DNA of 64,000 bases, taken from an uncultured Candidatus Rokubacteria bacterium (GTDB lineage Bacteria; Methylomirabilota; Methylomirabilia; Rokubacteriales; CSP1-6). Where the stretch lies: the NCBI GenBank assembly GCA_963762145.1, contig CAVXJS010000021.1, positions 192,001 to 256,000 of the forward strand. The letters are read 5' to 3'. The position numbers and the translations under genes are program-made. This document shows, one piece after another, positions 22,865 through 64,000 of the stretch (position 1 is its first letter; each line of letters opens with the position of its first letter). The notes under the pieces were generated by a model that ran no database searches, was not told the origin of the DNA, and saw nothing but the letters and a program-made list of their open reading frames with translations.

Positions 22865-22967
22865 CTGTCACCACGATAGCGTTTCCTTCCACAACGCACC
22901 GGGCTGACAGCTGATTCGCTTCTTCAGTGAAGTGGAGTCAGAGTCAGGAGAAGGCCGGGAGCCGAAT

Positions 22968-24580: not shown

Positions 24581-24584
24581 ACCC

Positions 24585-25657: not shown

Positions 25658-25662
25658 ACGGA

Positions 25663-34357: not shown

Positions 34358-34369
34358 GGCCTCTCGCGT

Positions 34370-46869: not shown

Positions 46870-48827
46870 CGCGCCTGCCGCGGGCGCTGCTCCCGACCCT
46901 CGTCTCCCTCCTTGCGTTCGCCGCGTTCCTGCCCGCCCTCGAGGGAGGGTTCCTGGACTGGGACGACGACCGGAACTTCCTGTGGAACACCGGATACCGC
47001 GGCCTCGGCCTGCGCGAGCTGCAGTGGATGTTCACCGCGACGTGGATGGGCCACTACATCCCGATCACGTGGCTGACCTTCGGACTCAACCATGCGCTCG
47101 GGGGGATGGATCCGTGGGGCTATCACCTGGGCAATCTCCTGCTCCACGCGGCGAACACGACCCTCTTCTTCTTCGTCGCGCGCCGGCTCCTGGCGGTCGC
47201 CCGGCCGGAAGCTGGGGTGGCCGTCCGCCTGGCGGCCGCCGCCGCCGCCCTGCTGTGGGCTCTTCACCCCCTCCGCGTGGAGTCGGTCGCGTGGATCACG
47301 GAGCGGCGAGATCTGCTCTGTGGCTTCTTCTACCTGATCGCGGTGCTCGCCTATCTGCGGGGGGCGACGCGCGAGCACACCCTCACCGGGCGCTGGCTCG
47401 TGGCATCGCTCGTCGCCTTCGCGGCGGCCCTCGGCTCGAAGGCGATCGCGATGACGCTCCCGCTGACCCTGCTCGTACTCGACGTCTATCCCCTCCGTCG
47501 CCTTCGACTCGGCTGGCCGGCCCTCGTCCGGGAGAAGCTGGGGCACTTCGCGCTCGCCGCCATCGGCGCGGGCGTGGCGAGCTGGGCGGTCACCCGGGGA
47601 GCCGGCTGGACGAGCTACGAGGCCTACGGGCTGGAGGCGCGGCTGGCGATGACCGGCTATAGCTTCTGGTTCTATCCCGCGAAGCTGATCTGGCCGGAAC
47701 GGCTCTCGCCCCTCTACGAGCTGCCCGCCCGCATCCGTCTGCTCGACGCCGAGTTCCTCTGGCCGGCCGTGGCCGTGCTCGTGGTCACCGCCGTCCTGCT
47801 GCTCGCGCGCCGCCGTGCCCCCGGCGCGCTCGCCGCCTGGCTTCACTCCCTCATCGTGCTGGCTCCGGTGAGCGGCATCGCGCACGCCGGCCACCAGCTG
47901 GCGCACGACCGCTATAGCTATCTCTCCGGTCTCGGGTTCGCGGTGCTCGCGGGAGCGGGCGTCGTGTGGCTCGGACAGCAGCGGGCGCGCGGGCAAGTGA
48001 GTCGCTGGGTGGTCGGAGCCACCGCCGCGGCGCTGGTGCTCGCGCTGACCGGACTGGGCGCGAGCACCTGGGTCCAGAGCCGCATCTGGCGCGATTCCGA
48101 GAGCCTCTGGCGATCGGCGGTCACGGCTCATCCCACGTGCGCGCTGTGCCGCCAGAAGCTCGGCGGCGTCCTGCAGACAGCGGGTCTCCACCGAGAGGCG
48201 GAGGCCGAGCTCACCCGCGCGACCGCGCTACGGCCGGAGCGGCCGACCGCGCACAACAGCCTCGGGGCTCTCTACGTGGACCAGGGCCAGCTCGGCCTAG
48301 CCGAGGCGGAGTTCCGCGAGGCCATCCGCCTGGCGCCGCAGTACGCCGAGGCCACCGCAAATCTGGGGGCCCTCTATGCGCGCCAGCGACGGCACGCCGA
48401 GGCGCTTCCGTTCCTGCGCCGCGCCGTCGCCCTCTCCCCGCAGTTCGGCAACGCGCGGGGCAACCTGGCGTTCGCCCTCGACAATGCGGGAGTCGAGCTC
48501 GCCCAGTCGGGCAAGCCCGCGGAAGCGGTCGGCCTGTTCAAGGAGGCGGCCGAGCTGGTGCCCGCGGAGGCCACCTTCTGGCGGAACCTCGGGCAGGCCC
48601 TGATCGAGGACGGGGAAATCGGCGAGGCCGTCGCGCCGCTCGAGCGCGCGGTGGCGCTCCGGCCCAAGGGCGCGACGGAGCGAGTCTGGCTCGCGCGAGT
48701 CTACCTGCTCGCAGACAGGCCGGCCGAAGCGCAGGCTCAGATCGACGTGCTCAGAACGCTGGACCCGGCGGCGGTGGGGACGGTCCTCCGCGCGGCCGGC
48801 GGGTCGGTCGAGGAGCCGCGCCGCTAG
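46866..48827 (+). CDS. TMTC-like GT-C membrane protein with C-terminal TPRs, paralog 4
   Basis: DWDD, GYHLGNLLLH, HPLRVESVAWITERRD, WPERLSPLY, DRYSYL, WRDSESLW, several TPRs. Confidence 0.82.
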   Translation: MTRLPRALLPTLVSLLAFAAFLPALEGGFLDWDDDRNFLWNTGYRGLGLRELQWMFTATWMGHYIPITWLTFGLNHALGGMDPWGYHLGNLLLHAANTTLFFFVARRLLAVARPEAGVAVRLAAAAAALLWALHPLRVESVAWITERRDLLCGFFYLIAVLAYLRGATREHTLTGRWLVASLVAFAAALGSKAIAMTLPLTLLVLDVYPLRRLRLGWPALVREKLGHFALAAIGAGVASWAVTRGAGWTSYEAYGLEARLAMTGYSFWFYPAKLIWPERLSPLYELPARIRLLDAEFLWPAVAVLVVTAVLLLARRRAPGALAAWLHSLIVLAPVSGIAHAGHQLAHDRYSYLSGLGFAVLAGAGVVWLGQQRARGQVSRWVVGATAAALVLALTGLGASTWVQSRIWRDSESLWRSAVTAHPTCALCRQKLGGVLQTAGLHREAEAELTRATALRPERPTAHNSLGALYVDQGQLGLAEAEFREAIRLAPQYAEATANLGALYARQRRHAEALPFLRRAVALSPQFGNARGNLAFALDNAGVELAQSGKPAEAVGLFKEAAELVPAEATFWRNLGQALIEDGEIGEAVAPLERAVALRPKGATERVWLARVYLLADRPAEAQAQIDVLRTLDPAAVGTVLRAAGGSVEEPRR

Positions 48828-48940: not shown

Positions 48941-50143
48941 TTGAGCGGAAGCGCCCGGACGGCCGACGCCGTCATCATCGGCGGCGGGGTGACGGGCGTC
49001 TCGATCGCGTTCCAGCTCGCAGGGGCGGGCCTCCGGCGAGTCGTCATCCTCGAGTGGAAGTTCCTCGGCTCGGGCGGGACGGGCCGATCCGTCGGCATCA
49101 TCCGTCAGCTCTATCCCACGCGCGAGACGAGCCAGATGGTGCTCCGCTCGCTCGCGGTCTTCGAGCGCTTCGGCGAGGCGGTGGGGGGCGAGGCGGGCTT
49201 CGTGCGCACCGGCGCTCTCATCGGAGTCTCCCCGTCCATGCGGCCCACGCTCGAGCGGACGCTGGCGCTGCAGAAGGGCATCGGCATCCAGGCCGAGATC
49301 GTGGAGCCCGCCGACGTGGCCCGCATCGAGCCCCGCATCGACACCTCGGAGCTCGGCGCGGTGCTGTGGGAGCCGGGCTCCGGCTACGGAGATCCCAGCG
49401 CGGTGACCGCCGGCTTCGCCGCCGCGGCGCGCCGACGCGGCGTCGCGATCGAGCAGGGCGTCGAGGTGATCGCGATTCGACGCCAGGGCGACCGGGTCGT
49501 CGGGGTGGACACCGCGACCGGCGACCGGATCGACGCGCCGGTCGTGATCAACGCGGCGGGGCTCTGGTCGCCCCGGGTCGCGCAGCTCGCCGGCGTGGCG
49601 CTGCCCATCGTGATCGGGCGTCATCCGGTCTTCACGGTGGCGCGGAATGCGGGATTCGGCCCCGCGCACACCGTGTACCTGGACCTGGCCGGGGGAAGCT
49701 ACGTGCGGCCCGAGACCGGCAACCTCACCTTGACCGGATCCCTCACCGATGACGAGACCCAGCACCCGATGGACCCGGATCTCCTCGGCAGCGAGGCCGG
49801 CTTCGACGAGGCCGCGGACGTCCTGGCCCGCACCGCCCGGGCCATCCCGGCGCTGACCGACGCGCGGTTCACCCGCGGCTACGCGGGAGCCTTCGACATC
49901 ACGCCGGACTGGATGCCGATTCTCGACGAGTCGCCGGTGCGCGGCTTCTGGATCGCGGCGGGCATGTCCGGCCACGGCTTCAAGCTGTCCCCGGCGGTGG
50001 GCGAGATGATGGCCGCCCTGGTCACGGGCGTCCCGTCGCCGGTGAGCCCCGCGCCGTTTCGGCTGGATCGCTTCGGCTCCCTCGACGCCGCGGGGTCCTC
50101 GGGCTTCGTCTCGTCCTACCTGGGAGCGGCCGGCCCGTCGTGA
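48941..50143 (+). CDS. FAD-dependent oxidoreductase (sarcosine oxidase beta / DAO family)
   Basis: IIGGGVTG, TGRSVG, INAAGLWS, TPDWMPIL, GMSGHGFKLSPAVG. Confidence 0.9.
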   Translation: MSGSARTADAVIIGGGVTGVSIAFQLAGAGLRRVVILEWKFLGSGGTGRSVGIIRQLYPTRETSQMVLRSLAVFERFGEAVGGEAGFVRTGALIGVSPSMRPTLERTLALQKGIGIQAEIVEPADVARIEPRIDTSELGAVLWEPGSGYGDPSAVTAGFAAAARRRGVAIEQGVEVIAIRRQGDRVVGVDTATGDRIDAPVVINAAGLWSPRVAQLAGVALPIVIGRHPVFTVARNAGFGPAHTVYLDLAGGSYVRPETGNLTLTGSLTDDETQHPMDPDLLGSEAGFDEAADVLARTARAIPALTDARFTRGYAGAFDITPDWMPILDESPVRGFWIAAGMSGHGFKLSPAVGEMMAALVTGVPSPVSPAPFRLDRFGSLDAAGSSGFVSSYLGAAGPS

Positions 50144-51882
50144 GTGACGTCACCCCGCGGGTGAAACGCCTGCTCCTCGGCCTGGCCGGCCTTCTCTGCA
50201 TCGCCGAGATCTGGATCTCCGGGCTCAACTTCGCGAACTACCAGATCTGGTACGGGGCCCACGGCTGGTTCCCGGGAGAGCTGGCCTTCCTCCTGCACTA
50301 CCTGCTCTTCGGCATCCCCGCCATCGTCCTCCTGACGTTCGCGATCCGGGAAACGGCCGGTCCCCGGATCCTGGATGCCATCGAGCGCCTCGATGGACTG
50401 AATCCTCGCGAGGTCCGCGCCATCGTCTTCGGCGCCTGCTCGGGCACGTTCTTTCTCACCACGCTGACCCGCCTCATGGTCCTGAAGGACGCGGCGGTCA
50501 GCGACGACGAGAACGCCTATCTCTTCATGGCCCAGATGTTCGCGTCCGGAAAGATCCTCGTGCCGGCCCCGCCGGATGCCCTCCGCGCGTTCTTCGAAAA
50601 CCAGTTCCTCGTCATCAACGCCGGGAAGATGTACGGGATCTACTTCCCGGGACATCCGGCCGCGCTCGCGATCGGGGAATCGCTCGGACTGCTCCACTGG
50701 GTGACCACGGTATCGGCCACCGTGACGGTGCTGCTGGCGTTCGCCATCGCGCGTCGCCTCTTCGGCCAGCGGACCGCGCTGCTGGCGCTGCCGATGCTCC
50801 TGGTCTCCCCGTACTTCGTGTTCTCGTCCGCCACGCTGCTCGCCCATTCGACGGTGGCGGTGCTTCTCCTGGCGTTCCTGTACGCGGTGCTGCGCGCCCA
50901 CGAGGACCCGCGCGCGATCCGCTGGTGGCTTCTCGCGGGAGCCGCGCTGGGCTGGGCCACCCTGACGCGGCCGTTCTCGGCGCCGGTCTTCGCGGCGCCC
51001 TGGCTGGGATGGCTCGCGCTGCGCTTGTGGACGGCGCGCTCTCCGCGGGCGCTCGTGGGAGCCGGCGCGGCTACCCTGACGGTGATCGGGGCCGGGCTGC
51101 TGCTCCTCGACTACCAGCACGCGCTTTCCGGCTCCCCGTTCGAGAGCGGCTACCAGACGTTCAGCCGCCTTCGGAACTGGGGCCTCGTCGGCCAGGCGGT
51201 CCGGGCTCCCGCGCCGCTTCCGTCGATCCACGAGCTCGGACACACGCTCGCCCGCTTCAACTTCTGGCTCTTCGGATGGCCGGTCTCGCTGGTGCTCGCG
51301 GCCTTCTTCCATCGCGTTCCGGGCGGGCTGCGGCTGTTCGCGAGCTGCGCCGGAGTGCTACTCCTCTATGCCGGCATCTCGGCGGCCAGCATCAGCAGCG
51401 CCGGCCCCGCCCACTACGCCGAGCTCGCCGCGCCGCTGGTGCTCCTGTCCGCCAGCGGCTTCCTGCGGCTCACCGAGCTGAGCCGCCGACCCGGAGCTCC
51501 CGCGGGCGCGCCCGCGTTCGTGGCCTCGTTCCCGCTCGTCGCCTCGCTCTGTGCGCTGATCACCTTCCTGCCGGTCTACGCCGGCTCCCTGCGGGCCAGC
51601 GCCGATCTGGTGAACGCCCCCTACGATCTCGTGGAGATCGAGGTGCCGGCGCCGGAGCGAGCCGTCGTCTTCGTCCACAGCCTCCCGGGCACCGCGCTGC
51701 CTCCCTACACCTGGGCCTACTACCGCCGGAACAATCGCCCGGACCTGAGCGATCGCGTTCTCCTCGTCAATTTCCTGGACGCGGATCGGAACCGCGCGCT
51801 CATGCAGGCCCTGCCGGAGCGCGTGCCCTACGTGATGGGGATGGACGGGGCGCGCCTGGTGCTGAAGCGCGTCACGCCCTGA
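50140..51882 (+). CDS. GT-C fold (ArnT/PMT-like) membrane glycosyltransferase
   Basis: SDDENAYLF in first loop, YFPGHP, many TM helices, LLAH, TRP motif, soluble C-terminal domain. Confidence 0.72.
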   Translation: MSDVTPRVKRLLLGLAGLLCIAEIWISGLNFANYQIWYGAHGWFPGELAFLLHYLLFGIPAIVLLTFAIRETAGPRILDAIERLDGLNPREVRAIVFGACSGTFFLTTLTRLMVLKDAAVSDDENAYLFMAQMFASGKILVPAPPDALRAFFENQFLVINAGKMYGIYFPGHPAALAIGESLGLLHWVTTVSATVTVLLAFAIARRLFGQRTALLALPMLLVSPYFVFSSATLLAHSTVAVLLLAFLYAVLRAHEDPRAIRWWLLAGAALGWATLTRPFSAPVFAAPWLGWLALRLWTARSPRALVGAGAATLTVIGAGLLLLDYQHALSGSPFESGYQTFSRLRNWGLVGQAVRAPAPLPSIHELGHTLARFNFWLFGWPVSLVLAAFFHRVPGGLRLFASCAGVLLLYAGISAASISSAGPAHYAELAAPLVLLSASGFLRLTELSRRPGAPAGAPAFVASFPLVASLCALITFLPVYAGSLRASADLVNAPYDLVEIEVPAPERAVVFVHSLPGTALPPYTWAYYRRNNRPDLSDRVLLVNFLDADRNRALMQALPERVPYVMGMDGARLVLKRVTP

Positions 51883-52584: not shown

Positions 52585-53517
52585 CTAGGCCTCGGGACGA
52601 CGGGCGATGAACGCCATCGTGGCGGTCCGGCTGACCAGCGCCTGAAAGATGGTCACCGGCAGGAACGGCGCGATCAGGGCCGGATACCAGCGGACGCGGC
52701 CGTTCGCGGGTACCCGGAGCCCGCCCCGGTCCGCGAGCCAGTTCTGGATGCCCGCGCTCCAACCGACCGTGCGCAGGCGAGGCACGATGCGGGTGTCCAC
52801 GAATCCGGTCTGCTCGCAGGCGGCCCGGATGGTCTCGGGGCTGAAGAGCGCGATGTGCCGCGGGAAGTGCAGCGCGCCCCAGTAGCGCCCGAAGAGCCGG
52901 AAGTCCCAGCAGTCGATGTTCGGCGTCTCGCCGAAGAGGATCCCGCCCGGCCGGAGCAGCTCCCGGGCGCGCCGCAGCGTCGCGATCGGATCGCGGACGT
53001 GCTCGATGACGTGGCCCATGCGAATGAGATCGAACGACTCCGGAGGGAAGTCGGTGTCGACCAGATCGCCCTGGCGCACGTTGAACCCGCGCCGGACCGC
53101 CTGGCGGGCGGCCTCCGCGTCGAGCTCGAGCCCGCAGACGTCCCACTCGCCCACCCCGGCGAGGGCGTTCAGGGCGCCGCCCGCGCCGCACCCGACGTCG
53201 AGGACCCGGCCGCGAGGACCGATGAGGCGCGCCACCCGCCGCGCGTCCAGCCAGTAGGTGATGCGGAACAACCAGCCCACCACCGGATCATCGCCGTAGA
53301 CCGCGTAGGTCGGCGGGTAGTAGCTCGGGATCACGTCGCGGGCCGGCCGCGGAGTCTGATAGTAGAGATCACACGCGGTGCAGCGGGAGAGCGTGAAGCG
53401 TCCGGACACGCCGTACTCGTAGTCGCCCGCTTCGAGCACGGGCACCGCGTGGCGGTCGGATCGACAGAGATCGCATACCGCCCCGGCCAGCTCGGCGTCG
53501 CGGACGGACGCGTTCAT
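52585..53517 (-). CDS. Class I SAM-dependent methyltransferase with N-terminal CxxC...CxxC
   Basis: CDLC, CTAC, VLDVGCGAG, HVIEHVRDP, LRPGG, ETPN. Confidence 0.85.
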   Translation of the reverse strand: MNASVRDAELAGAVCDLCRSDRHAVPVLEAGDYEYGVSGRFTLSRCTACDLYYQTPRPARDVIPSYYPPTYAVYGDDPVVGWLFRITYWLDARRVARLIGPRGRVLDVGCGAGGALNALAGVGEWDVCGLELDAEAARQAVRRGFNVRQGDLVDTDFPPESFDLIRMGHVIEHVRDPIATLRRARELLRPGGILFGETPNIDCWDFRLFGRYWGALHFPRHIALFSPETIRAACEQTGFVDTRIVPRLRTVGWSAGIQNWLADRGGLRVPANGRVRWYPALIAPFLPVTIFQALVSRTATMAFIARRPEA

Positions 53518-54557
53518 GCGCGCTCCCGGACGGCCGACCCGCTCCGCCACTCGGCCCGGATCTTCTGGAACAGGAAGCCGAAATAGCTCCGATTCGTGGG
53601 CACCGGGATCCCCGCGGCCACGAGGAGACGATGCACCTCGGGCAGGTTGTAGTTGGGAATGCTGGGAAACACGTGATGCTCGTAGTGGAGGTACTGGCCG
53701 AAGGGCGCGATGATCCACCGCTCGACCACGTTCAGACGGCTCGTCCGCGTCACCCACGCCTCCTGCGGCGACTCCGGATGATAGCCCGCCTCGAAGCCGT
53801 GCTCCGCGATCGAGCGAACCCGGATCTGGAGTGGATAGAGCGTCATGATGGGCAGGACGTGCAGGAGCAGGTAGGCCCAGGGCCCGCCCGTCATCGTGAA
53901 CAGCGCCAGGAGCGCGAGCTGGGTGATCGCCACCGGGATCATCGTGGCGGCCATGCGGACGAAGTAGGCCGGCGTGAGGCGCCGCCACGGCGAGACGGAA
54001 TAGGTGGCGCGGTCGGACTGGGAGTACTGCAGCAGACGCTTGACCGCCGACACCAGGAAGAGGTCCCCGAGCAGGCCCTTGAGCATCGCGGACGCCGACG
54101 CCTCCGGCTGGCTGAAGATGATGTCGGGATCGCGATCGGTGTTCAGGTACAGGTGATGGTCCATGTGCGCGGTCCGGTGCCCCCCGCGCGTGTAGCCGAG
54201 CAGGTACGCGAAGAGATTCCCGAACCCCTGGTTCAGGCGCGGATCGTGGAACAGGGTGCCGTGGTCGCTCTCGTGCACGAGCTGGGCCGCGCAGTTGAAG
54301 TTGCGGATCGCCCAGAGCGCCAGGAGCGCGGCGGTCCACCAGCGGGGATAGAGCCCGAAGACCACCGGTACCGCCACGAACGACGCCAGCGCCGCGATCA
54401 CGTCCAGCGCGCTGCGCCCATCGCGCATCCGGTGCACGGCTCGGAGCGCCTCGAGACTGATCGCGCCCGACTGCAGCGCTTCCCGGGCGGACCGGGGCGC
54501 GCCCACCGTCATGTCCTCGAGACCCGCTCCGCTCCGGTCGGTCATTCCGGTGGTCAT
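53514..54557 (-). CDS. Membrane fatty acid desaturase family protein
   Basis: Three His boxes HESDH, HMDHH, HYEHH plus AEH and TM segments. Confidence 0.85.
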   Translation of the reverse strand: MTTGMTDRSGAGLEDMTVGAPRSAREALQSGAISLEALRAVHRMRDGRSALDVIAALASFVAVPVVFGLYPRWWTAALLALWAIRNFNCAAQLVHESDHGTLFHDPRLNQGFGNLFAYLLGYTRGGHRTAHMDHHLYLNTDRDPDIIFSQPEASASAMLKGLLGDLFLVSAVKRLLQYSQSDRATYSVSPWRRLTPAYFVRMAATMIPVAITQLALLALFTMTGGPWAYLLLHVLPIMTLYPLQIRVRSIAEHGFEAGYHPESPQEAWVTRTSRLNVVERWIIAPFGQYLHYEHHVFPSIPNYNLPEVHRLLVAAGIPVPTNRSYFGFLFQKIRAEWRSGSAVRERA

Positions 54558-55630: not shown

Positions 55631-56302
55631 CTACTGCATCCACTTCTGGAAGTCGGTCACGAACTGGCGCACCGCTTCGTCGGTCTTGGGGTGGCTGACC
55701 ATGGCCCGGAAGAACTTCGGGGGCACCGTGACGATGTCGGCGCCCGCCTGGAAGGCCTCGCTGATGTCCGCGATGTGCCGGATGCTGCCCACGATGATCT
55801 CGCACGGGACCGCCCGCTCGCGGAACGTCTCCCGGACCGAGCGCACCACCGAGGCCGCGTCGTAGCCCACGTCCCGAATGCGGCCGTAGAAGAGGCTCAC
55901 GTAGTTGGCCCCCGCCGCGGCCGCCATCACCGCCTGCCCGTAGGACATGCAGCAGGTGCAGTTGACCCGGATGCCCCGGCGCCGCAGCTCGCTGATCACG
56001 GCCAGCTCGTCCCAGCCCACCGGGATCTTCACGTTGAGGTTCGGATAGTGGCCGAACTCCCGCACGAAATCCTCGGCTTGCTCGATCATCTCCTCCGGCC
56101 GGGTCGAGAAGACCTCGACGCTCAGCGGGATATCGTACCCGTAGCGCTGCACGAGCTCGATGATCTTCTTCATGTGCTCGCGGAAGTCCGCCTTCTCTTC
56201 CTTGGCGAGGATCGACGGGTTCGTGGTGATGCCGGCGGGAAAGCCGCGCTCCAGCGCCTCCTCGATCTCTACCAGGTTTGCCGAGTCGACGAAGATCTTC
56301 AT
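55631..56302 (-). CDS. Transaldolase (short TalC/FSA-type family)
   Basis: IFVDSA, GITTNPS, SVEV, Schiff-base VKIP, YVSLFYGR, GSIR, TVPP. Confidence 0.88.
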   Translation of the reverse strand: MKIFVDSANLVEIEEALERGFPAGITTNPSILAKEEKADFREHMKKIIELVQRYGYDIPLSVEVFSTRPEEMIEQAEDFVREFGHYPNLNVKIPVGWDELAVISELRRRGIRVNCTCCMSYGQAVMAAAAGANYVSLFYGRIRDVGYDAASVVRSVRETFRERAVPCEIIVGSIRHIADISEAFQAGADIVTVPPKFFRAMVSHPKTDEAVRQFVTDFQKWMQ

Positions 56303-56327
56303 GATGTCTCCCTCCGGGCCCGCCCCG

Positions 56328-56981
56328 TCATTCGGTCAGGGTCCAGTAGTAGTCGCCGGTGTAGCCGGCCTCGCGGAACAACCGGCGCCAGCCCTCCGGA
56401 TCCGAGTAGGTGAGCGCGGTGAGCTGCCAGCGCTCGAACTTCTCGTGCTGCGCCTCGTCGAGCCACGAGTCCACCTGGACGTAGCGATGGCGCCGGCCCA
56501 CCCGCTCGATCTCGCCGAGCGCGCGGATGCAGTCCGAGCGCTCGAGGTTGTGCAGGGTGTTGATCGACACCACCAGGTCGAACGTCTTGTCCGCGAACGG
56601 CAGCCGCTCCGCAGAGCCGCGCGCGAGGAACGGTCGGACGTCGTCCATCGCCTGGCCGAGTGCGTAGGCCGAGACGTCGAGCCCCGCGACGCGCACCCCC
56701 GCGATCACGCGGCGCAGGTCGTGGAGGAGGAACCCCTTGGCGCATCCGACGTCGAGGACCCGATCGCCCGGTCGGAGCCCGTAGAAGTCGCGGAGGCGGG
56801 CCGCGATCGGCTCCCAGCGCCCGTCGTAGCGGTAGCCGCCGTAGCCCTGGCCGCGGTCGCCGTCGAAGTACTCGCGGGCGAACCGCTTCGCGACCTCGCG
56901 CTGGGCGGGGACCGCGGCGGCGCGGGCCGCGATGTCCCGCCGGGCGCGCGGATAGCGGTCGAGGAGATCCACCTCAGCCAT
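56328..56981 (-). CDS. Class I SAM-dependent methyltransferase
   Basis: YFDGDRGQGYGGYRYDGRW, VLDVGCAKG, LPFADKTFDLVVSINTLHNL. Confidence 0.85.
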   Translation of the reverse strand: MAEVDLLDRYPRARRDIAARAAAVPAQREVAKRFAREYFDGDRGQGYGGYRYDGRWEPIAARLRDFYGLRPGDRVLDVGCAKGFLLHDLRRVIAGVRVAGLDVSAYALGQAMDDVRPFLARGSAERLPFADKTFDLVVSINTLHNLERSDCIRALGEIERVGRRHRYVQVDSWLDEAQHEKFERWQLTALTYSDPEGWRRLFREAGYTGDYYWTLTE

Positions 56982-57852
56982 TCGCGATCGCTCCAAAGGA
57001 CGCGAGGGTCGCCCGGAGGCCTTCCCGGATCGGGGTGAAGCGCAGTCCCGGCAGCGCGCGGCCCAGGCGGCCGGTGTCGAACCGGCGGTGCGTGATCGGC
57101 CCCTTCCGCGCCGCGCTCGTCACCGTGAGCTCGTAGGGCACGAGGTCGCGGATCGTCTTCACCACGTCCGCGAACGCCTGGCTCTGCCCGGTCGCCACGT
57201 TGTAGACGCCGTCGGCGCCGCTCCGGAGCAGGTCCGCGACCACGCGCGCCGCGTCGTCCACGTACAGGTGGTCGCGCTCTTCCTCTCCCGCCCCGAAGAT
57301 CCGGACCGTGCGGTCCCGGGCCAGGGAGCGCGCGAAGGCGTTGGGGCCGTAGGACGCGTGCGGATCGCCGGGCCCGTAGACTCCGGTCACCCGGAGCGTC
57401 AGGAGCGGAATCCCGCCCACGCGGGCCGCGCTCTCCATCACCCGCTCCCCGACGTACTTGCCGATCGCGTAGTAGCCCGCGGGCGACACCGGCGTGTCCT
57501 CGGTGACCGGCGCCTCGCCGAAGCCGTACGCCGCGTCCGAGCTCAGGTAGACCAGGCGGCCGAGGCGACGTCCCTCGAGATAGGCGGCCAGGTTCGCGGC
57601 CATCGTGGTGTTGGTGAGGAGCGTGGCGGGGCTCTGGCCTCGGTCCGGGGTCAACGCCGACGCGAACACGAGCGCGGTCTCGGGCCCCAGCGCGTCATCG
57701 AGGACCGCCAGCGCGTCGGCCCGCGTGAGGTCCAGCGTCCGTGACGAGTGTGCGACCACCGCGACGCCGTCCTTCTCGAGCCGCGCGTGGAGCGTCCGGC
57801 CGAGGAAGCCGCTCGCGCCCAGGATCACGACCCGCTCCGCCTTCCCGCTCAT
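56974..57852 (-). CDS. NAD-dependent epimerase/dehydratase (extended SDR)
   Basis: GASGFLG, SSDAAYG, YAIGK, VYGPGD, RDHLYVDD. Confidence 0.88.
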   Translation of the reverse strand: MSGKAERVVILGASGFLGRTLHARLEKDGVAVVAHSSRTLDLTRADALAVLDDALGPETALVFASALTPDRGQSPATLLTNTTMAANLAAYLEGRRLGRLVYLSSDAAYGFGEAPVTEDTPVSPAGYYAIGKYVGERVMESAARVGGIPLLTLRVTGVYGPGDPHASYGPNAFARSLARDRTVRIFGAGEEERDHLYVDDAARVVADLLRSGADGVYNVATGQSQAFADVVKTIRDLVPYELTVTSAARKGPITHRRFDTGRLGRALPGLRFTPIREGLRATLASFGAIANG

Positions 57853-58448
57853 CGCGTGAGGCTCTCCCACCGCATCGGCGCGGCCTGCAGGCGCGGATGC
57901 GCGACCAGCATGTGCCACACCACCGCCTGGAACGCCTCGGCGTGCGCGGTGACCCGCTCCGGGCTCACGGTGGGGATGACCACGCACGCGTCCGCCACGG
58001 TCGCGGTGAAGCCGCCGTCCCGGCCGACGATGGCGCCGATCCGGGCCCTCACCGTCTTGGCGTGCTCGAGCGCGCGGACCAGGTTGATGCTCACCTTCCG
58101 CACCAGGTCGCCCCCGCCCACCGAGAACACGAGCACGCAGTCGCGCGGACCGAGGCGGCTGACCTTGAGCCAGTTGGCGAACGCGGTGTCCCAGCCGTCG
58201 TCGTTGATGCGGGCGGTGAGCTCCGACACGTTGTCGGTCGGCGCGTAGGCCTCGAAGCCCGAGATCTTCCGGAAGTCGTTCACCGCGTGCGAGGCGTTGC
58301 CGGCGCTGCCGCCAACGCCCAGCACGAAGAGACGGCCCCCGCCGTCGCGGGTGTCCGCGAGCAGGTCCACCAGGCTCGAGACCGCCGCGTGATCGATGCG
58401 GGCCGCCACCTCCGCGGCCTCCGCGAGGAACTGGGCGACGAAGTTCAT
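57849..58448 (-). CDS. SIS-domain sugar-phosphate isomerase (GmhA-like)
   Basis: GVGGSAGNASHAVND, TARINDDG, FSVGGG, HAEAFQ. Confidence 0.88.
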   Translation of the reverse strand: MNFVAQFLAEAAEVAARIDHAAVSSLVDLLADTRDGGGRLFVLGVGGSAGNASHAVNDFRKISGFEAYAPTDNVSELTARINDDGWDTAFANWLKVSRLGPRDCVLVFSVGGGDLVRKVSINLVRALEHAKTVRARIGAIVGRDGGFTATVADACVVIPTVSPERVTAHAEAFQAVVWHMLVAHPRLQAAPMRWESLTR

Positions 58449-58981
58449 GGGAGATCCTCTATCCGCGCCAGCACCGCGTCGACCGCGCCGGCCAGATCGG
58501 CCACCCGGGCGTCCGCGACACGGCACTCGCTGTAAGGGCGCTCGATGAGCACCGTGTAGCATCCGACCGCCCGGCCCGCGTCGATGTCCCGCCACCGGTC
58601 GCCCACCACGAACGAGGCGGCCAGGTCGAGACCCCAGGCCCGGGCCGCCGCCTCCAGCATGCCCGGCCGGGGCTTGCGACACGCGCAGCCCTCGCCGTCC
58701 GCGTGCACGCAGACGAGAATGTCGTCGACGCCCACCGTCTCGCGTAGCCGCGCGTGCATGATCTCGAGGGTCTCGGGGCTGAGCGTGCCGCGGGCGACCT
58801 CGGGCTGGTTGGTGAAGACGATCGGCCGCAGCCCGACCGCCCGCAGCCGTCCGACCTGCTCGCGCGCCTCCGGGCAGATGCGGAACTCGGCGAGGGTCAC
58901 CGCCGCGTGGGCTCGGCCGTCCCGGACGAGCGTTTCCACCAGGACGCCGTCGCGATCGAGAAACGCGGCCCGCCCGCTCAC
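58445..58981 (-). CDS. HAD sugar-bisphosphate phosphatase (GmhB-like)
   Basis: FLDRDGVL, TNQP, CVH...CACRKPRPGML, VGDRWRD. Confidence 0.9.
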   Translation of the reverse strand: MSGRAAFLDRDGVLVETLVRDGRAHAAVTLAEFRICPEAREQVGRLRAVGLRPIVFTNQPEVARGTLSPETLEIMHARLRETVGVDDILVCVHADGEGCACRKPRPGMLEAAARAWGLDLAASFVVGDRWRDIDAGRAVGCYTVLIERPYSECRVADARVADLAGAVDAVLARIEDLP

Positions 58982-60276
58982 CGGCGCCCCGCCTGACCCA
59001 TGGCCACGTACTCCACCCCGCGCAGCTCCGCGCGACCGGCGTCCATCACCCCCACGCAGTCGATGACCACGGGATGGCGCATCGCCCGGAACCCGACTCC
59101 GGGCGGCGTGGCGAACTCGTCCCAGTCGGTCAGGATCAGCAGGCAATCGGCGCCGACGAGGGCCGCGTCGCGGCTCTCCACAAGGGTCGCGGCCACCTCC
59201 GCGCCCGGCGCCTTCACGAGGGGATCGTAGGCGCGCACCTCCGCGCGGCCGCGCAGGTTCTCGATCACGCGCAGCGCCATCGAGTTCTTGGTGGAGCGCG
59301 TGTTCTTCTTGTACGCGAGACCCCACACCGCGACGACCGCGCTCGCGTTGCCGTCGAGCACGCGCCGCTCGAGCTGGCGGTGGACCCAGCGATAGCGGCG
59401 GGCATTGTGCGCGAGCAGCGTGTCCACGTACTCGACGTCGACGCCGTGCCGCTGCCCGAGCCCGCGCAGGGTCACGAGATCGCGCTCGAGATTCCCGCCC
59501 GCGACGCCCAGGCTGGGGCGGATGTACGCGGCGGGCCCGATGCGCCGGTCGAGCCGAAGGGCCGGTACCATCTCCGACCAGTTGGCCCCCACCGCCTCGC
59601 AGAGATCGGACAGGGTGTTGGCGTACGTCACCGCGCCGAACAGGTAGAGGTTGATCGCGGTCTTGGTCAGCTCCGCGCTCTCGTACCCCATCGGCAGGAT
59701 CGGGCATCCGAACCGGCGCAGCCCCTCGTCGAGCTCGGCGGGGAGCGGCCGGCCGGGATCGGCGGCGCCCACGATGAGCCGCTCCGGCTTGAGGAATCGC
59801 TCGACCGCGTTGCCGAAGATCAGCGTCTCGACCCAGTAGTAGACCGCGATCCCGCTGTCCGGGCGGCGCGACTCGATCCGCCCGGCGAGCGCGCGAGTGG
59901 CACCCGGCGATACCTGACTCATCAGGACCAGGGTGGAGCCGGGCCGCAGGTGGGGAATCGCCGCCTCGATCAGGCGGTGCACGATCTCCGGATCGCTTCC
60001 ATTGTCCGCGTCGGTCGGGATGTCCCGCGAGACGATCACGAGATCGCATTCCGCGAGCGCGGACGGATCGCTCGAGAACTGGATGCGGTCGCGGGTCGCG
60101 GCCAGGAGCTCCGGGAGCCCCGGCTCGTGTACCGGAAGCTCACCGCGCCCGAGCCGGTCCACCGCCTCGCGGTCGAGGTCCACCGCGATGACGCGGGATC
60201 CCAGCGAGGCCCACCCGATGCTCGAGATGATCCCGAGGTGGGACAGCCCGAGGAAGCCGGTGGGTCGCGCGCTCAC
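58978..60276 (-). CDS. UDP-glucose/GDP-mannose dehydrogenase-like protein lacking the catalytic Cys
   Basis: PVHEPGL, SAELTKTAIN, LDRRIG, WGLAYKKNT, AYDP, LTDWDEF; GGNLERD where the family has GGxCxPKD. Confidence 0.85.
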   Translation of the reverse strand: MSARPTGFLGLSHLGIISSIGWASLGSRVIAVDLDREAVDRLGRGELPVHEPGLPELLAATRDRIQFSSDPSALAECDLVIVSRDIPTDADNGSDPEIVHRLIEAAIPHLRPGSTLVLMSQVSPGATRALAGRIESRRPDSGIAVYYWVETLIFGNAVERFLKPERLIVGAADPGRPLPAELDEGLRRFGCPILPMGYESAELTKTAINLYLFGAVTYANTLSDLCEAVGANWSEMVPALRLDRRIGPAAYIRPSLGVAGGNLERDLVTLRGLGQRHGVDVEYVDTLLAHNARRYRWVHRQLERRVLDGNASAVVAVWGLAYKKNTRSTKNSMALRVIENLRGRAEVRAYDPLVKAPGAEVAATLVESRDAALVGADCLLILTDWDEFATPPGVGFRAMRHPVVIDCVGVMDAGRAELRGVEYVAMGQAGRR

Positions 60277-61187
60277 GCGCCGCCCTCCAGGGGGGCCGCG
60301 GCCGCCGCCTGCACGGTGCGGGACAGCCACAGGTCGTTCTCGCCGGAGCTGGCGCCGGTCGCGGCCATCGCCTCGAAGTGGCGGATATCGGCGGCCCACG
60401 TGGGGTCGGGGCCGTGCGCCATCTCGCGGCTCTCGTCCGGCACGCCGCTGGGGCGGCGCCGGCGCAGGATCACCAGCTCACTCCGGCCCCACTTGGTGAG
60501 CCCGTTCATCTCGAGCGCGCCCTCTTCTCCGAGGGCTTCGATGCGCCACCGATTCTTCCACGACAGGAAGCTGCACTCGATGGTCACGGCACGGTCGGCG
60601 GTCGCGAGGAGGCAGTGGTCGAAGCCCTTCAGCTCGTGGCGGCGGCGCTCCCACACCCGGAACTCGGCGCCGAAGCGTCCGAAGACGAACCCGGTGAGGT
60701 CGATGAGGTGCGAGGCCATGTCCTCGAGGATGCCGAGCGGGCTGTCCCGCCACGTGCCCACGATGTTGCCCGCGCTGCCGTTCCCGTAGAACATGCGCAC
60801 GCGGTAGAGCCGGCCGATCGTGCCCGCGTCCAGATGGCGCTTGAGGGCCACGACGTTCGGCTCGAACCGGAAGTTGTAGGACGTGTACCAGACGGCGCCG
60901 GAGGCCCGGGCCAGCCGGCCGAGCTGCTCGCCGGTCGCCGGGTCCAGGATCAGGGGCTTCTCGACGAGCACGTGCTTGCCGCGAGTGAGGAAGTACTCCA
61001 TGAGGCGGACCTTCACGTCGTTGGGCACCGCCAGGATCGCCGCGTCGTACCGCTCGTCGGGGCACTGGTCGGGCTGGCGAAAGTCCGCCGCCGGGTTGAA
61101 CGGATCGACGGTGGCTACGCAGCGGTCCCCCAGGACCGCGCGGCGCTTGCCGCCGATATTGCCGAGGCCGACGAGCAGGTATCTCAC
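60273..61187 (-). CDS. Gfo/Idh/MocA family oxidoreductase
   Basis: VGLGNIG, GKHVLVEKP, YNFRF, GILEDMASHLID. Confidence 0.88.
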   Translation of the reverse strand: MRYLLVGLGNIGGKRRAVLGDRCVATVDPFNPAADFRQPDQCPDERYDAAILAVPNDVKVRLMEYFLTRGKHVLVEKPLILDPATGEQLGRLARASGAVWYTSYNFRFEPNVVALKRHLDAGTIGRLYRVRMFYGNGSAGNIVGTWRDSPLGILEDMASHLIDLTGFVFGRFGAEFRVWERRRHELKGFDHCLLATADRAVTIECSFLSWKNRWRIEALGEEGALEMNGLTKWGRSELVILRRRRPSGVPDESREMAHGPDPTWAADIRHFEAMAATGASSGENDLWLSRTVQAAAAAPLEGGA

Positions 61188-62719
61188 TCGAAGTGGGCCC
61201 GCTTCTCGATCCGGTGGATCTTCTCGGCCACCTCTTCCGGGGTGATCGGCCGGTTACCCTGATACTCGCAGGCGAGCGCCGCCGACACCGAGCCCAGGAC
61301 CGACGCGATCACGATGTCGCCGGTGGCGGCCAGCGCGAGCGCGGCGTAGCTCAGGAGCGCGTCGCCCGCCCCCACCGGGTCCTTGAGGGTATCCACCAGG
61401 CTGTCGACCGTGAAGAACTCGCGCGGCATGTGGCCCGGCGTCCGGTAGCCGAGAATGCCCCGCTCCCCGAGCTTGAGAATCAGGTGCTTGCACCGGGCGA
61501 GCCGGAAGAGCTGGAGCGCGAGCGGCCGCACCACCGAATCCTGGTCGCCCAGGGCGAAGCGCGCCTCGCGCTCGTTCGGGGTCAGGAGGTCGAAGTCGGT
61601 GAACTCGAGGATGTTGCCCCAGCGGTTCGACACCTGACTGTCCGCCACCTTGATCGCGCCCTCGGGCACCCGCTCCCGCAGCATCCGGATGCTCTTGGAC
61701 CGGAAGATCCCGTGGCGGAAATCGCTGAAGATCACGACGTCCGGGCGGCTGTCCGCCATCGACTCGCTGAGGAAGCGCAGCGCCCGGTCCGAGACCGCCC
61801 GGTTGTCCACCCGATCCACCTGGAGCATCTTGTGGCCGTCCGCGAAGAACCGCTCCTTCTGGGTGGTCGGCCGGGTGCGATCGATGAACCCGTGCACCAC
61901 CACCCCGGCCTCTTCCAGGTCCTTCAGCACGAAATCCTTGGCCGCGTCGTTGCCGAGCACCGTCGAGAAGGAGACCTCGGCCCCCGCCGCCTTCACGTGC
62001 TTGGCCACCACCGCGGCGCCGCCCGAGAAGACCTCGGTCCGCTCGTGCTTGACGCTGAAGGTCGGCGACTTGGCGGTGGCGCCCAGGAGCGAGCAGGACG
62101 AATAGCTGTCCACGATGGTGTCGCCGACCACGTGCACCCGGATCCCCCGCATCCGGCCGAGGGTCTCGCGGAGACGGTCGAAGCCGAAACCCTCCGACTC
62201 CATCAGGGCCAGCAGCTTCTCGACCCCGAGGTTCGGCGGCGCCGCCTCGATGAGCCGGGACGAGGAGTAGACCACGTCGCCCGGCGTGAACACGATCTCG
62301 CCGCCGTAGCTCTCCAGGGTGTCGATCTCCTCCTGGGTGCGCGGCGGCACCCCCTCGGAGAAGTACTCGTAGCCCTTGGCGAAGTAGTCGGGCTGGAGGT
62401 ACTTGATGTGCGCGATCGGGGTCGCGTTGGGGTCGATGATCACGTAGTCGACCATCTCGAGCGCGGCCAGGTTGGCCGCCCGCAGCTCCTGCGGCACGTA
62501 CGGACGGAAGGCCGCCTTGGTCGCGTGCTCGTCGGCGGTCAGGCTCGCGACGAGGAGGTCTGCCTTCTCCTTGGCGTACATCAGGTGGCGCAGGTGGCCG
62601 GGATGCACGATGTCGAACATCCCGTGGCACATGATCACGCTCTTGGCGCGCGGCCGCGGGCCGATGGCGGCGGCCAGCTCCTCGAGCGTCTTCACCTTCT
62701 GCCGGTAGTCGGCTTTCAT
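61184..62719 (-). CDS. Bifunctional nucleotidyltransferase (N-terminal) / PfkB sugar kinase (C-terminal), HldE/RfaE-like
   Basis: HGMFDIVHPGH, KGYEY, SSSRLI; VGDTIVD, GGAAVVA, TPNEREAR, DPVGAGD. Confidence 0.88.
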   Translation of the reverse strand: MKADYRQKVKTLEELAAAIGPRPRAKSVIMCHGMFDIVHPGHLRHLMYAKEKADLLVASLTADEHATKAAFRPYVPQELRAANLAALEMVDYVIIDPNATPIAHIKYLQPDYFAKGYEYFSEGVPPRTQEEIDTLESYGGEIVFTPGDVVYSSSRLIEAAPPNLGVEKLLALMESEGFGFDRLRETLGRMRGIRVHVVGDTIVDSYSSCSLLGATAKSPTFSVKHERTEVFSGGAAVVAKHVKAAGAEVSFSTVLGNDAAKDFVLKDLEEAGVVVHGFIDRTRPTTQKERFFADGHKMLQVDRVDNRAVSDRALRFLSESMADSRPDVVIFSDFRHGIFRSKSIRMLRERVPEGAIKVADSQVSNRWGNILEFTDFDLLTPNEREARFALGDQDSVVRPLALQLFRLARCKHLILKLGERGILGYRTPGHMPREFFTVDSLVDTLKDPVGAGDALLSYAALALAATGDIVIASVLGSVSAALACEYQGNRPITPEEVAEKIHRIEKRAHFE

Positions 62720-63705
62720 CGCGCGAGGTGCTCGAACCACGTCCGGGTGGCGGCCTCGATCTTCTCGGGCGTCCAGAGGGGGGCCGCCCGCCAGTCCTCG
62801 ATCTGTCCGAGCATCGCGGCGACGCCCTGCGGGAAGGCCACCTCCGGCTTCCAGCCGAGGGCCCGCTGGATACGGCCGACGTCGGCCCACGTGCAGTCCG
62901 GCTCGCCCGGGCGCTTCGGCACGTGCACCACGTCGCCTCCCATCAGCTCGATCAGGCGGTTGATGGTCTGGGGATTGCCGGAGCCGAGGTTGAAGACCTG
63001 GTTGGTCTCGGTGGACTCGGCGGCCATCAGGTAGGCCCGGGCCACATCGGTGACGAACACGAAGTCCCGCCGCTGGGAGCCGTCGCCGACCACCGTGAAC
63101 GGCTTGCCGTGGAGCTTCTGGGCCAGGAAGACCCCGAACACCGCGCCGTAGGCGCCGGTGGTGCGGACGCGGGGTCCGTAGACGTTGAACATGCGGATCG
63201 AGACCACGGGCAGCCGGTACACCTGGGCCCAGTGCAGCGCCGCGCTCTCCCCCAGGTACTTGCTGAGCGCGTAGGGGTACTCGGGTCGGATGGGCGCGCC
63301 TTCCGTGGTCGGGAGCTCGGCGGCCATCCCGTAGCAGGAGGACGACGCGGCGTAGACGAACTTCCGGACCCCCGCGTGCCGGGAGGCCTCCAGGACCGCG
63401 AGCGTGCCGTCCACGTTGGCCCGCATGTACTCGAGGGGCCGCTCGATCGACGGCACGATGTCGCCGATGCCGCCGAAGTGGAAGACGTAGTCGACGTCCT
63501 GGAACAGCCGCGAGTCCGCCGCCACCGTGCACATGTCGATCTCGTGGAAGGCGACGCGCGGCTCGCGCCGGTGCTGCGCCAGGTTCTCGGCGCGGCCGGT
63601 CACGAGGTTGTCGATCACCACGACCGAGTAGCCGCGGTCGACGAGCAGATCGACCATGTGGCTGCCGATGAACCCGGCCCCTCCGGTGACGACGGCGCGC
63701 GGCAT
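62716..63705 (-). CDS. NAD-dependent epimerase/dehydratase (extended SDR)
   Basis: TGGAGFIGSH, ASSSCYG, YALSK, FNVYGPR, RDFVFV, KRPGE. Confidence 0.92.
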   Translation of the reverse strand: MPRAVVTGGAGFIGSHMVDLLVDRGYSVVVIDNLVTGRAENLAQHRREPRVAFHEIDMCTVAADSRLFQDVDYVFHFGGIGDIVPSIERPLEYMRANVDGTLAVLEASRHAGVRKFVYAASSSCYGMAAELPTTEGAPIRPEYPYALSKYLGESAALHWAQVYRLPVVSIRMFNVYGPRVRTTGAYGAVFGVFLAQKLHGKPFTVVGDGSQRRDFVFVTDVARAYLMAAESTETNQVFNLGSGNPQTINRLIELMGGDVVHVPKRPGEPDCTWADVGRIQRALGWKPEVAFPQGVAAMLGQIEDWRAAPLWTPEKIEAATRTWFEHLAR

Positions 63706-63707
63706 GC

Positions 63708-64000
63708 TCAGGCCAGCCCCGAGGCCTGGATCGTCTTGACGTTGTAGTAGCGGATGTCGTTCAGCGGATCCGGGATGCGCCCGGTCCGGAACGCGGCACA
63801 CAGATCCACCACCGCGTCCTCGATGGTGCGCTGAGGCGCCCAGCCGATCTCCCGCTTGATCTTCTCCGACGACACGTGGTACGAGCGCGTGTCGTTGCTC
63901 GGCACCGTCTCCAGCGTGATGGGGCCGAGCTGCGGCATCTCCCGGCTCACGATCCCCCGCACCAGCTCGCCCAGCTGGGCCACCGTGTGGTTCTGATAGG
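63708..64000 (-). CDS. NAD-dependent epimerase/dehydratase, C-terminal part (5' partial)
   Basis: DTRSYHVSSEKIKREIGWAP resembles extended-SDR C-termini; frame runs off the window. Confidence 0.65.
   Translation of the reverse strand, partial: YQNHTVAQLGELVRGIVSREMPQLGPITLETVPSNDTRSYHVSSEKIKREIGWAPQRTIEDAVVDLCAAFRTGRIPDPLNDIRYYNVKTIQASGLA

Follow-up and report, generated by a model that had tools for sequence, protein, structure and literature searches.

Are higher-carbon sugars of the lincosamide kind built outside antibiotic biosynthesis and, if so, from what backbone? Higher-carbon sugars are uncommon, and to our knowledge the way they are made has been worked out in only a few cases, such as those of lipopolysaccharide (LPS) heptose, Kdo, nonulosonic acids and lincosamide octose. 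The question is raised by a minus-strand operon at the end of a 64,000-nucleotide stretch of DNA from an uncultured Candidatus Rokubacteria bacterium (contig CAVXJS010000021.1, positions 192,001 to 256,000), the whole of which is referred to here as the window. An earlier note, made from the sequence alone, had read positions 55631 to 64000 as a set of enzymes resembling those for the lincomycin octose, in a surface-glycan context. The gene families that it listed are all encoded on the minus strand, as borne out by Pfam and NCBIfam matches and by start-codon evidence. Judged from gene content, these genes are likely to be the larger part of an operon of about 18 genes in a Rokubacteria/Methylomirabilota-like bacterium, the core of which would be a cassette, common to many lineages, that makes a tailored, nucleotide-activated higher-carbon sugar de novo. 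The central proposal of that note had been a higher-carbon nucleoside diphosphate (NDP)-sugar pathway of its own, outside antibiotic clusters and in a glycosylation setting, and it gains support from the recurrence, among 43 related loci, of the transaldolase in 33, the Ugd-like dehydrogenase homologue in 40 and the Gfo/Idh/MocA oxidoreductase (Gfo) in 42, and from the replacement of the catalytic Cys by Asn in 63 of 63 copies of the Ugd-like protein.

Genes were called from Pfam and NCBIfam profile scans, a start-codon survey and the G+C content at third codon positions (GC3) of the frames, and 52 open reading frames (ORFs) of the window were scanned against Pfam. The G+C content across the window is 64-73%, and the minus-strand frames run unbroken from 64000 down to 51898, with a GC3 of 0.85-0.96. 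From SDR1 through SDR2 (SDR, short-chain dehydrogenase/reductase), the start of each gene overlaps the preceding stop by 4 bp, and this includes the Gfo/Ugd-like pair, whose overlap had been remarked on before. Promoter-like and terminator-like sites were sought in the operon, and neither exceeded shuffled expectation. Within the window, the operon ends downstream at 51898, and its upstream end lies past 64000. The single SDR epimerase of the earlier description is present, but it is one of two SDRs, and the C-terminal 96 residues of a third (SDR0) are encoded upstream of them; there are also more methyltransferases, and the operon extends further in both directions. A 584-residue ‘methyltransferase’, the longest-ORF call at 52585-54557, was rejected: the GC3 profile changes frame at about 54600, which separates a gene of the FA_desaturase family from the methyltransferase gene MT2.

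The recurrence of this gene set was assessed in a genome scan of one genome per species, with alignment A1 of 14 relatives of the fused nucleotidyltransferase/kinase as the query. It returned 434 matching stretches, of which 403 were confirmed as relatives of the fused enzyme, and the best 80 loci (L001-L080) were fetched and searched by tblastn with the window proteins and with proteins from three low-G+C loci. The numbers of loci given for each gene refer to the 43 that are flanked by 8 kb or more on either side. Besides the three genes counted above, SDR0 was found in 41, SDR1 in 40, the HAD phosphatase in 37, a thiamine pyrophosphate (TPP)-dependent pair in 36 (E1 alpha/beta in 24, a split transketolase in 13, one locus having both), the SIS isomerase and the methyltransferase MT1 in 34 each, a small family 2 glycosyltransferase (GT2) in 21, a NUDIX gene in 15 and a DegT aminotransferase in 12. 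A set that recurs in the 80 fetched loci is not a chance grouping. The fused enzyme itself is 59-97% identical across its relatives; the best 120 clusters lie at 69-97% identity and all combine PF01467 with PF00294, and the copy of the nearest locus, L001, is 97% identical to that of the window.

The genes beyond 64000, which the earlier note had wished to see inspected, were looked at through synteny. Upstream of SDR1, the close relatives L001, L002, L003, L005, L007 and L008 share the order E1alpha-E1beta-GT2-SDR0, and from SDR1 onward their order is that of the window, save that L007 lacks the genes from the transaldolase to MT2. On this basis, the start of the window operon is put about 3.5 kb past 64000, at the TPP-dependent E1 alpha/beta pair. 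The E1 pair, GT2 and third SDR thus placed beyond the window shift the picture towards C2 extension or branching of the sugar.

In a quick tree of the fused enzyme, with 70 labelled rows and 15 phylum labels, including Bacillota and Chloroflexota, the window falls among Methylomirabilota/Rokubacteria contigs. The tree has two well-supported clades and requires 23 label changes where the minimum is 14, which indicates that descent inside phyla has been largely vertical and that some transfer has taken place. A second lineage of the fused enzyme in Methylomirabilota (L042, L047, L054, L077 and L032), about 63% identical to the window copy, forms a separate clade with 100% support; in L042, the cassette adjoins the nonulosonic-acid genes NeuB, UDP-GlcNAc 2-epimerase and CBS-NTP_transferase. 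Six contigs (L006, L020, L025, L028, L029 and L032) bear unlikely host labels (Nitrosocosmicus, Dormiibacterota, Akkermansia muciniphila, Klebsiella and Actinobacteria) and are probably mis-binned or mislabelled; their fused enzymes group with Methylomirabilota copies or are 88-90% identical to them, or group with Verrucomicrobiota. The plasmid search found no copy of the cassette, either with the fused enzyme (2 records, 31-32% identity) or with the Ugd-like protein (427 records, all below 60% identity, the best at about 33%), and the one Streptomyces plasmid locus inspected, L081, is unrelated.

The fusion of kinase and nucleotidyltransferase had been recognized before; its order had not, and it is the reverse of that in HldE. 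TIGR02199 matches residues 22-158 and TIGR02198 residues 189-501, and the kinase part of the HldE profile (positions 5-317) aligns with residues 187-506 and its domain II with residues 22-158, so that the kinase occupies the C-terminal half and the adenylyltransferase model the N-terminus. Against the HldE equivalog NF008454, the protein scores 142.1 bits, short of the cut-off of 521, and its best PDB matches are the heptose 7-phosphate kinase 4e84 (54 bits) and the ‘putative cytidylyltransferase’ 5x9q (53.8 bits). By family assignment, the module is of the ADP-heptose-like HldA/HldC type (PfkB plus PF01467) and not of the type of LmbP and LmbO, which belong to the GHMP and PF00483 families and lead to a GDP-alpha-sugar; the earlier claim of a family-level counterpart for each lincomycin enzyme does not hold for these two activities. 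LmbO is entered as ‘C8 guanylyltransferase’ in Table 2 of PMC4351081. The types of heptose nucleotidyltransferase listed in PMC11573728 are mono-domain, kinase/nucleotidyltransferase and isomerase/kinase/nucleotidyltransferase, and the nucleotidyltransferase-first order is not among them. The consensus FTPGDVVYSSS is found where the (F/L)XXGRSTT motif of that paper would be expected, a positional match that is our own reading.

The other activation enzymes are likewise distant from their housekeeping equivalogs, none of which is reached. The SIS protein scores 49.9 bits against the GmhA model TIGR00441 (cut-off 209.45; 45.2 bits for the copy of L037), and its best GmhA in the PDB gives 37 bits. 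The HAD protein scores 104.2 bits against the GmhB model NF006506 (cut-off 178), with a match above cut-off to the HAD-IIIA subfamily model (Table 1), and against the HldD model TIGR02197 (cut-off 274.6), SDR1 and SDR2 give 126.7 and 61.4 bits. Together with the reversed fusion, the Asn in place of the catalytic Cys and the frequent company of a transaldolase (33/43) and a TPP enzyme (36/43), scores so far below the cut-offs indicate, as the earlier note had expected, that these proteins are not housekeeping Tal, GmhA or Ugd. With 390 representative clusters at E<=1e-30, the SIS family is a large one, and among 30 relatives scanned with Pfam, 10 are fused to a HAD phosphatase, in either order, and 5 to a PF00483 nucleotidyltransferase (47-64% identity to the window protein; P0126-P0266); it looks like a broad phosphoheptose-isomerase-like family. 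No LmbN-like carrier-protein domain occurs in the 30 Pfam-scanned members of the 150 best SIS representatives, and no LmbN was recognized by length and domain content among those 150; P0254, considered as an LmbN candidate, was rejected as a HAD-SIS fragment.

The Ugd-like protein has all three domains of a nucleotide-sugar dehydrogenase and scores above the cut-off of the subfamily model TIGR03026 (226.6 against 189.8 bits), while falling short of the UDP-glucose dehydrogenase equivalogs (167 bits against a cut-off of 670, and 151 against 700). In UDP-glucose dehydrogenase, the Cys of the motif GGxC(F/L)xKD is the nucleophile for the second oxidation, to the acid. None of the 63 copies examined has this residue: all read GGN(L/I)(E/P)RD, the GGN of the window protein aligning with the GGSC of PDB 4a7p and 3gg2 with Asn at the Cys position, and the Lys, Asn and Asp of the active site do not vary among 33 aligned sequences. 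Since there is no thiol nucleophile, a four-electron oxidation that ends in a uronic acid is not expected, two-electron chemistry being still possible; judged by its active site, the protein cannot be a normal 6-dehydrogenase. Its gene and the Gfo gene are adjacent and overlapping and are kept as a pair in nearly all loci, and a prediction of a complex between the two proteins (alignments A2 and A3) gave a score of 0.00, which is no verdict either way. The Gfo match at L015:2639-3550 and the Ugd-like match at L016:12471-13763 contain one in-frame stop each, which could be a sequencing error or the sign of a pseudogene; both rows were excluded from A2 and A3. Among the SDRs, the SDR0 of L037 has its best PDB match (145.2 bits) in 6vo6, deposited as a ‘putative sugar-nucleotide epimerase/dehydratase’, which we take to be Cj1427.

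The window transaldolase (TAL) resembles real transaldolases (154-127 bits) more than FSA (at most 87.6 bits), and it scores 169.4 bits against TIGR00875 (cut-off 245.95). Most other cassettes carry a type B TAL of 257 residues, which scores 341.3 bits against TIGR02134, above the cut-off of 281.95, and a third lineage is found in cassettes of the Bacillota type. The catalytic set D6/E63/K92/F138 (Asp, Glu, the Schiff-base Lys and Phe) is kept in 54 of 54 cassette TALs; at the discriminating position, Phe marks a transaldolase and Tyr an FSA. That TALs of three lineages have been recruited speaks for a genuine requirement for transaldolase activity. A transaldolase normally yields sedoheptulose-7-P, and in 13 of the 43 loci a split transketolase stands beside the TAL; together, the two could make sedoheptulose-7-P from fructose-6-P. 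For the backbone, C7 has about an even chance in our judgement, C8 is a somewhat less probable but serious candidate, and any other length is an outsider.

The E1 alpha/beta pair of the relatives scores 235 and 245 bits against pyruvate dehydrogenase (PDH) models with cut-offs of 394 and 321. The presence of either the E1 pair or the split transketolase in 36 of the 43 loci, and of both in one only, suggests a single shared role, the handling of a TPP-bound C2 unit. A pathway can be proposed from these parts. The transaldolase would first turn intermediates of the pentose phosphate pathway into sedoheptulose-7-P or, as LmbR does, into octulose-8-P; the SIS enzyme would convert the ketose phosphate to the aldose phosphate, the PfkB domain would place a phosphate on C1, the HAD phosphatase would remove the distal phosphate and the HldC-like domain would yield the NDP-beta-sugar. 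Oxidation, epimerization, deoxygenation and reduction of the NDP-sugar would then fall to SDR0, SDR1, SDR2, Gfo and the Cys-less Ugd-like protein, the last being restricted to two-electron chemistry, for example the conversion of a terminal alcohol to an aldehyde, or a share in an LmbL/LmbZ-like dehydration of the side chain. The TPP-dependent E1 alpha/beta enzyme, encoded beyond the window, may add a C2 unit, by carboligation onto the aldehyde or by branching of a keto-sugar as YerE-type enzymes do, and in the most economical reading Gfo and the SDRs would reduce or epimerize the product thereafter. MT1 would methylate it, the small GT2 would load the sugar onto polyprenyl phosphate, and a GT-C glycosyltransferase (PMT_2 here, YfhO in Bacillota relatives) would transfer it, outside the cytoplasm, to a surface acceptor. 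In its fullest form, which we offer tentatively, this would be a pathway of many phyla to a C8-C10 sugar through two successive C-C bond formations, with a C8 or C7 backbone from the transaldolase, an aldehyde from the Cys-less Ugd-like protein and then TPP carboligation adding C2, followed by methylation and export through polyprenyl phosphate and GT-C. If correct, it would be the first route of the NDP-octose type to lie outside antibiotic biosynthesis, and would supply Rokubacteria, Verrucomicrobiota, Acidobacteriota, Chloroflexota and others with a surface sugar that is still undescribed.

Several points weigh against this pathway. The GT2 and the TPP enzyme do not lie in the window and are placed beyond its end through synteny with contigs whose fused proteins are 85-97% identical, and within 10 kb the TAL is missing in 10 of the 43 loci and the SIS gene in 9. 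The roles of Gfo, the Ugd-like protein, the SDRs and the E1 pair we infer from chemistry: a C2-cleaving role of the TPP enzyme is equally allowed, and the sequences would agree equally well with a side-chain dehydration of the LmbL/LmbZ kind. The closest characterized relatives of the SIS enzyme, the kinase, the nucleotidyltransferase and the phosphatase are all heptose enzymes, so that nothing here points to a backbone other than C7. Finally, conserved-family clustering found no glycosyltransferase besides the small GT2 in at least 8 loci, and the NUDIX gene of 15 of the 43 loci might reflect the departure of some product from the NDP-sugar pool.

The alternative that survives best is a possible, though by no means favoured, route of the lincosamide type, in which the transaldolase would join a C3 donor to ribose-5-P to give octulose-8-P and, in turn, an NDP-octose, which the Ugd-like protein and Gfo would convert to a deoxy-octose by 6,8-dehydration; such a dehydration is part of the conversion of GDP-octose to GDP-lincosamide in the antibiotic pathway. 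That conversion is assigned to LmbM, LmbL, CcbZ and CcbS in the review PMC12945683. Dedicated TALs of three lineages, an adjacent and overlapping Ugd-like/Gfo pair in nearly all loci, the absence from the Ugd-like protein of the Cys needed to form an acid, and an isomerase, kinase, nucleotidyltransferase and phosphatase that all lie outside the heptose equivalogs would fit it, and the word ‘transaldolase’ is never used in the main text of a survey of Campylobacter GDP-heptose clusters (PMC10680097). The activation module, however, is HldA/HldC-like and not the separate kinase and guanylyltransferase of Table 2 in PMC4351081; relatives of the SIS enzyme at 50-64% identity are fused to PF00483 or HAD domains in many other genomes; and the transaldolase may simply make sedoheptulose-7-P, its usual product, all the more where a split transketolase is at hand to supply the same route from fructose-6-P.

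The surroundings of the cassette bear on whether the tailored sugar decorates the surface, as preferred above, or belongs to a soluble small molecule, such as an antibiotic-like glycoside, a cofactor, a signal or a compatible solute, an alternative that we regard as improbable. In its favour are the NUDIX hydrolase genes, the membrane di-iron enzyme and two further methyltransferases of the window operon, the lack of any glycosyltransferase family conserved across loci besides the small GT2, and the unusually high conservation of the fused enzyme (59-97% identity), as would be expected for a core metabolite. Against it, no polyketide synthase, non-ribosomal peptide synthetase or resistance family was found among the ORFs scanned in the window and related loci, many cassettes contain or adjoin GT2 genes of the polyprenyl-phosphate type and GT-C genes, and ABC-2 exporter and sugar-transferase genes are nearby. 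The small GT2 of the relatives matches AglJ (113 bits), PpgS (67) and the ArnC type (67), all below cut-offs. Related loci, in which 91 of 188 large flanking ORFs were scanned with Pfam, encode PMT_2 or YfhO GT-C proteins (YfhO in L021 and L022), GT4, GT2, an initiating transferase of the Bac_transf family, exporters of the ABC-2 and ABC types and DegT and, in one Methylomirabilota lineage, NeuB and the hydrolysing 2-epimerase. In L007, a PMT_2 protein 57% identical and a DAO protein 83% identical to those of the window stand beside the cassette. Three large proteins of the window, encoded on the plus strand at 34358-38043 and 46641-48827, have 7-9 predicted transmembrane (TM) helices and C-terminal TPR repeats, an architecture like that of GT-C/TMTC proteins or O-antigen ligases, and L001, L002 and L004 encode a similar TM and TPR protein upstream of their cassettes. 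The GT2, GT-C, exporter and TM/TPR genes near the cassettes support a role in extracytoplasmic glycosylation, and the tailored NDP-sugar is probably handed to polyprenyl-phosphate and GT-C transferases for surface decoration. The idea that housekeeping genes (a transaldolase of the pentose phosphate pathway, ADP-heptose genes serving the LPS core and UDP-glucose dehydrogenase) lie together here by chance is largely refuted and very improbable: every family has a housekeeping member and the window TAL has genuine TalC-type transaldolases as its nearest relatives, but the genes overlap by 4 bp, the set recurs in loci of 15 phylum labels, all scores stay below the equivalog cut-offs with the domain order reversed, and the catalytic Cys of Ugd is absent from all 63 copies.

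Set beside known systems, the cassette combines familiar superfamilies in a new way. It shares with the ADP-heptose pathway four activation chemistries and their superfamilies (SIS isomerase, PfkB anomeric kinase, HAD-IIIA phosphatase and HxGH cytidylyltransferase-like nucleotidyltransferase), and differs in placing the nucleotidyltransferase before the kinase, in scoring far below the equivalog cut-offs throughout, and in adding a transaldolase, the Cys-less Ugd-like protein, Gfo, a TPP enzyme and a methyltransferase. TPP enzymes of the E1 alpha/beta type also occur in the avilamycin and aldgamycin pathways. The likeness to the lincosamide GDP-octose pathway (LmbR, LmbN, LmbP, LmbK and LmbO, then LmbM, LmbL, LmbZ/CcbZ and LmbS/CcbS) lies in the functions described in PMC4351081 and PMC12945683: transaldolase, SIS enzyme, kinase, phosphatase, nucleotidyltransferase, SDR epimerase and an Ugd-like plus Gfo-like pair. 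Unlike that pathway, the cassette has its kinase and nucleotidyltransferase in a single protein of the HldA/HldC type, carries in addition a TPP C2 enzyme, two further SDRs and a methyltransferase, and is met with in many phyla and in glycosylation contexts. As stated in the earlier note, there is no aminotransferase in the window, no family match being found among the 52 ORFs scanned, so that a counterpart of LmbS is wanting there, with DegT in 12 of the 43 related loci; nor was any module for condensation with an amino acid or thiol, or for resistance, seen among the scanned ORFs.

The tailoring of GDP-heptose for the Campylobacter jejuni capsule offers a parallel in the SDR-catalysed C4 oxidation, epimerization and reduction of an NDP-heptose (the C4-dehydrogenase Cj1427, epimerases and C4-reductases, as given in PMC10680097), by a route that differs in using GmhA, the GHMP kinase HddA, a GDP-forming transferase and cupin epimerases, and no transaldolase, Ugd-like protein, Gfo or TPP enzyme. 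C2- or acyl-branched sugars of the YerE type likewise have a TPP enzyme encoded among NDP-sugar tailoring genes (PMC9306805); here, in distinction, the TPP enzyme is a PDH-E1-like alpha/beta pair or, in 13 of the 43 loci, a split transketolase, and the backbone itself is a heptose or octose. Erwiniose and caryophyllose were considered as products and set aside: such acyl-branched sugars come, by the same paper, from YerE-type enzymes, and are thus not the obvious product. Bradyrhizose depends on an 11-gene sugar-modification operon needed for O-antigen, described in PMC4743980, whose text gives no gene list. Three-component extracytoplasmic glycosylation, with a polyprenyl-phosphate GT2, a small membrane translocator and a GT-C transferase (for example ArnC/ArnT or CsbB/YfhO), is brought to mind by the small GT2 in the cassettes of close relatives, the GT-C gene beside the operon and the two small three-TM proteins U1 and U2; it differs in that U1 and U2 match no known flippase family, and that the GT2 is seen in the relatives' cassettes and not in the window. 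No description of this gene combination, or of an NDP-, ADP- or CDP-octose outside antibiotics, was found in the literature searched, subscription papers and supplements excepted, and the nucleotide-sugar product is probably new.

A cassette of 10-12 genes at 403 places in species-representative genomes, many of whose carriers are abundant uncultured lineages of soil and freshwater, gives the identity of the product some weight. Its identification would name a new surface sugar, give functions to the reversed fusion, the Cys-less Ugd family and U1/U2, and directly test transaldolase-based octose formation outside antibiotic pathways. Cultured carriers (Azospirillum griseum, A. rugosum, Skermanella aerolata and Sulfidibacter corallicola) make the cassette tractable.

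Table 1. Genes of the operon and its convergent neighbours in the window (aa, amino acids; SAM, S-adenosylmethionine; MT, methyltransferase)
Feature	Position	Strand	Remarks
SDR0, 3' end	63708-63998	-	Last 96 residues, cut by the window end; Cj1427-like NDP-sugar SDR; 53% identity over 96 residues to the C-terminus of the L037 SDR0
SDR1, putative GalE/WbpP-like NDP-sugar epimerase or dehydratase, 329 aa	62716-63705	-	Epimerase/GDP_Man_Dehyd; Epimerase 214.8 bits; galE 171.6 bits (cut-off 262.3); PDB 4zrm 178.1 bits
Fused nucleotidyltransferase (N-terminal, HldC-like) and PfkB sugar-phosphate kinase (C-terminal, HldA-like), 511 aa	61184-62719	-	CTP_transf_like PF01467 and PfkB PF00294
Gfo/Idh/MocA oxidoreductase, 304 aa	60273-61187	-	4-bp overlaps on both sides; best PDB match 43.1 bits
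Ugd-like NDP-sugar dehydrogenase homologue without catalytic Cys, 432 aa	58978-60276	-	PF03721, PF00984 and PF03720 (all three UDPG_MGDP_dh domains)
HAD-IIIA (GmhB-like) putative sugar-bisphosphate phosphatase, 178 aa	58445-58981	-	TIGR01662 74.3 bits (cut-off 44.6)
SIS_2 putative ketose-phosphate isomerase, distant GmhA relative, 199 aa	57849-58448	-	Pfam; TIGR00441 49.9 bits
SDR2, putative RmlD/Fcl-like NDP-sugar reductase or epimerase, 292 aa	56974-57852	-	rmlD 64.6 bits (cut-off 224)
MT1, class I SAM methyltransferase, 217 aa	56328-56981	-	Pfam; conserved cassette member
TalC-type transaldolase (TAL), 223 aa	55631-56302	-	TAL_FSA 156.3 bits
U1, membrane protein, 178 aa, three predicted TM helices	55094-55630	-	No known family; paralogue of U2
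U2, membrane protein, 174 aa, three predicted TM helices	54560-55084	-	No known family; paralogue of U1
Membrane di-iron enzyme, FA_desaturase family, 347 aa	53514-54557	-	PF00487 103.9 bits; GntB-like 69 bits, below cut-off
MT2, methyltransferase, 310 aa	52585-53517	-	Pfam and GC3 profile
MT3, weak methyltransferase match, 226 aa	51898-52578	-	Last gene of the operon
GT-C glycosyltransferase (PMT_2), about 8 predicted TM helices	50140-51882	+	PF13231 57.5 bits; convergent with the operon
FAD-dependent oxidoreductase (DAO family)	48941-50143	+	Upstream of the GT-C gene

The two membrane proteins that follow the TAL gene, U1 and U2, have a common DLGFLP motif and a soluble tail of about 80 residues each, and neither matched a Pfam or NCBIfam family. 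Their nearest Atlas clusters are unnamed proteins of 174-180 residues, commonest in Verrucomicrobiota and Pseudomonadota, and copies 39-47% identical come after MT1 in L024 and L026. The next gene downstream, for a di-iron hydroxylase or desaturase (53514-54557), is an odd presence within a sugar operon. On the opposite strand, the DAO-family flavoenzyme, which might act on the lipid-linked sugar, is one of several that adjoin GT-C or GT2 genes of the cassette (48941-51882 on the plus strand of the window, L007, L033 and L049). Farther off, at 12494-28287 on the plus strand, lies a complete type IV pilus cluster, with a T2SSE ATPase, a T2SSF platform protein, a sensor kinase, a sigma-54 response regulator, a pilin with an N-methylation motif, a prepilin peptidase, PilM, PilO and a secretin with AMIN domains.

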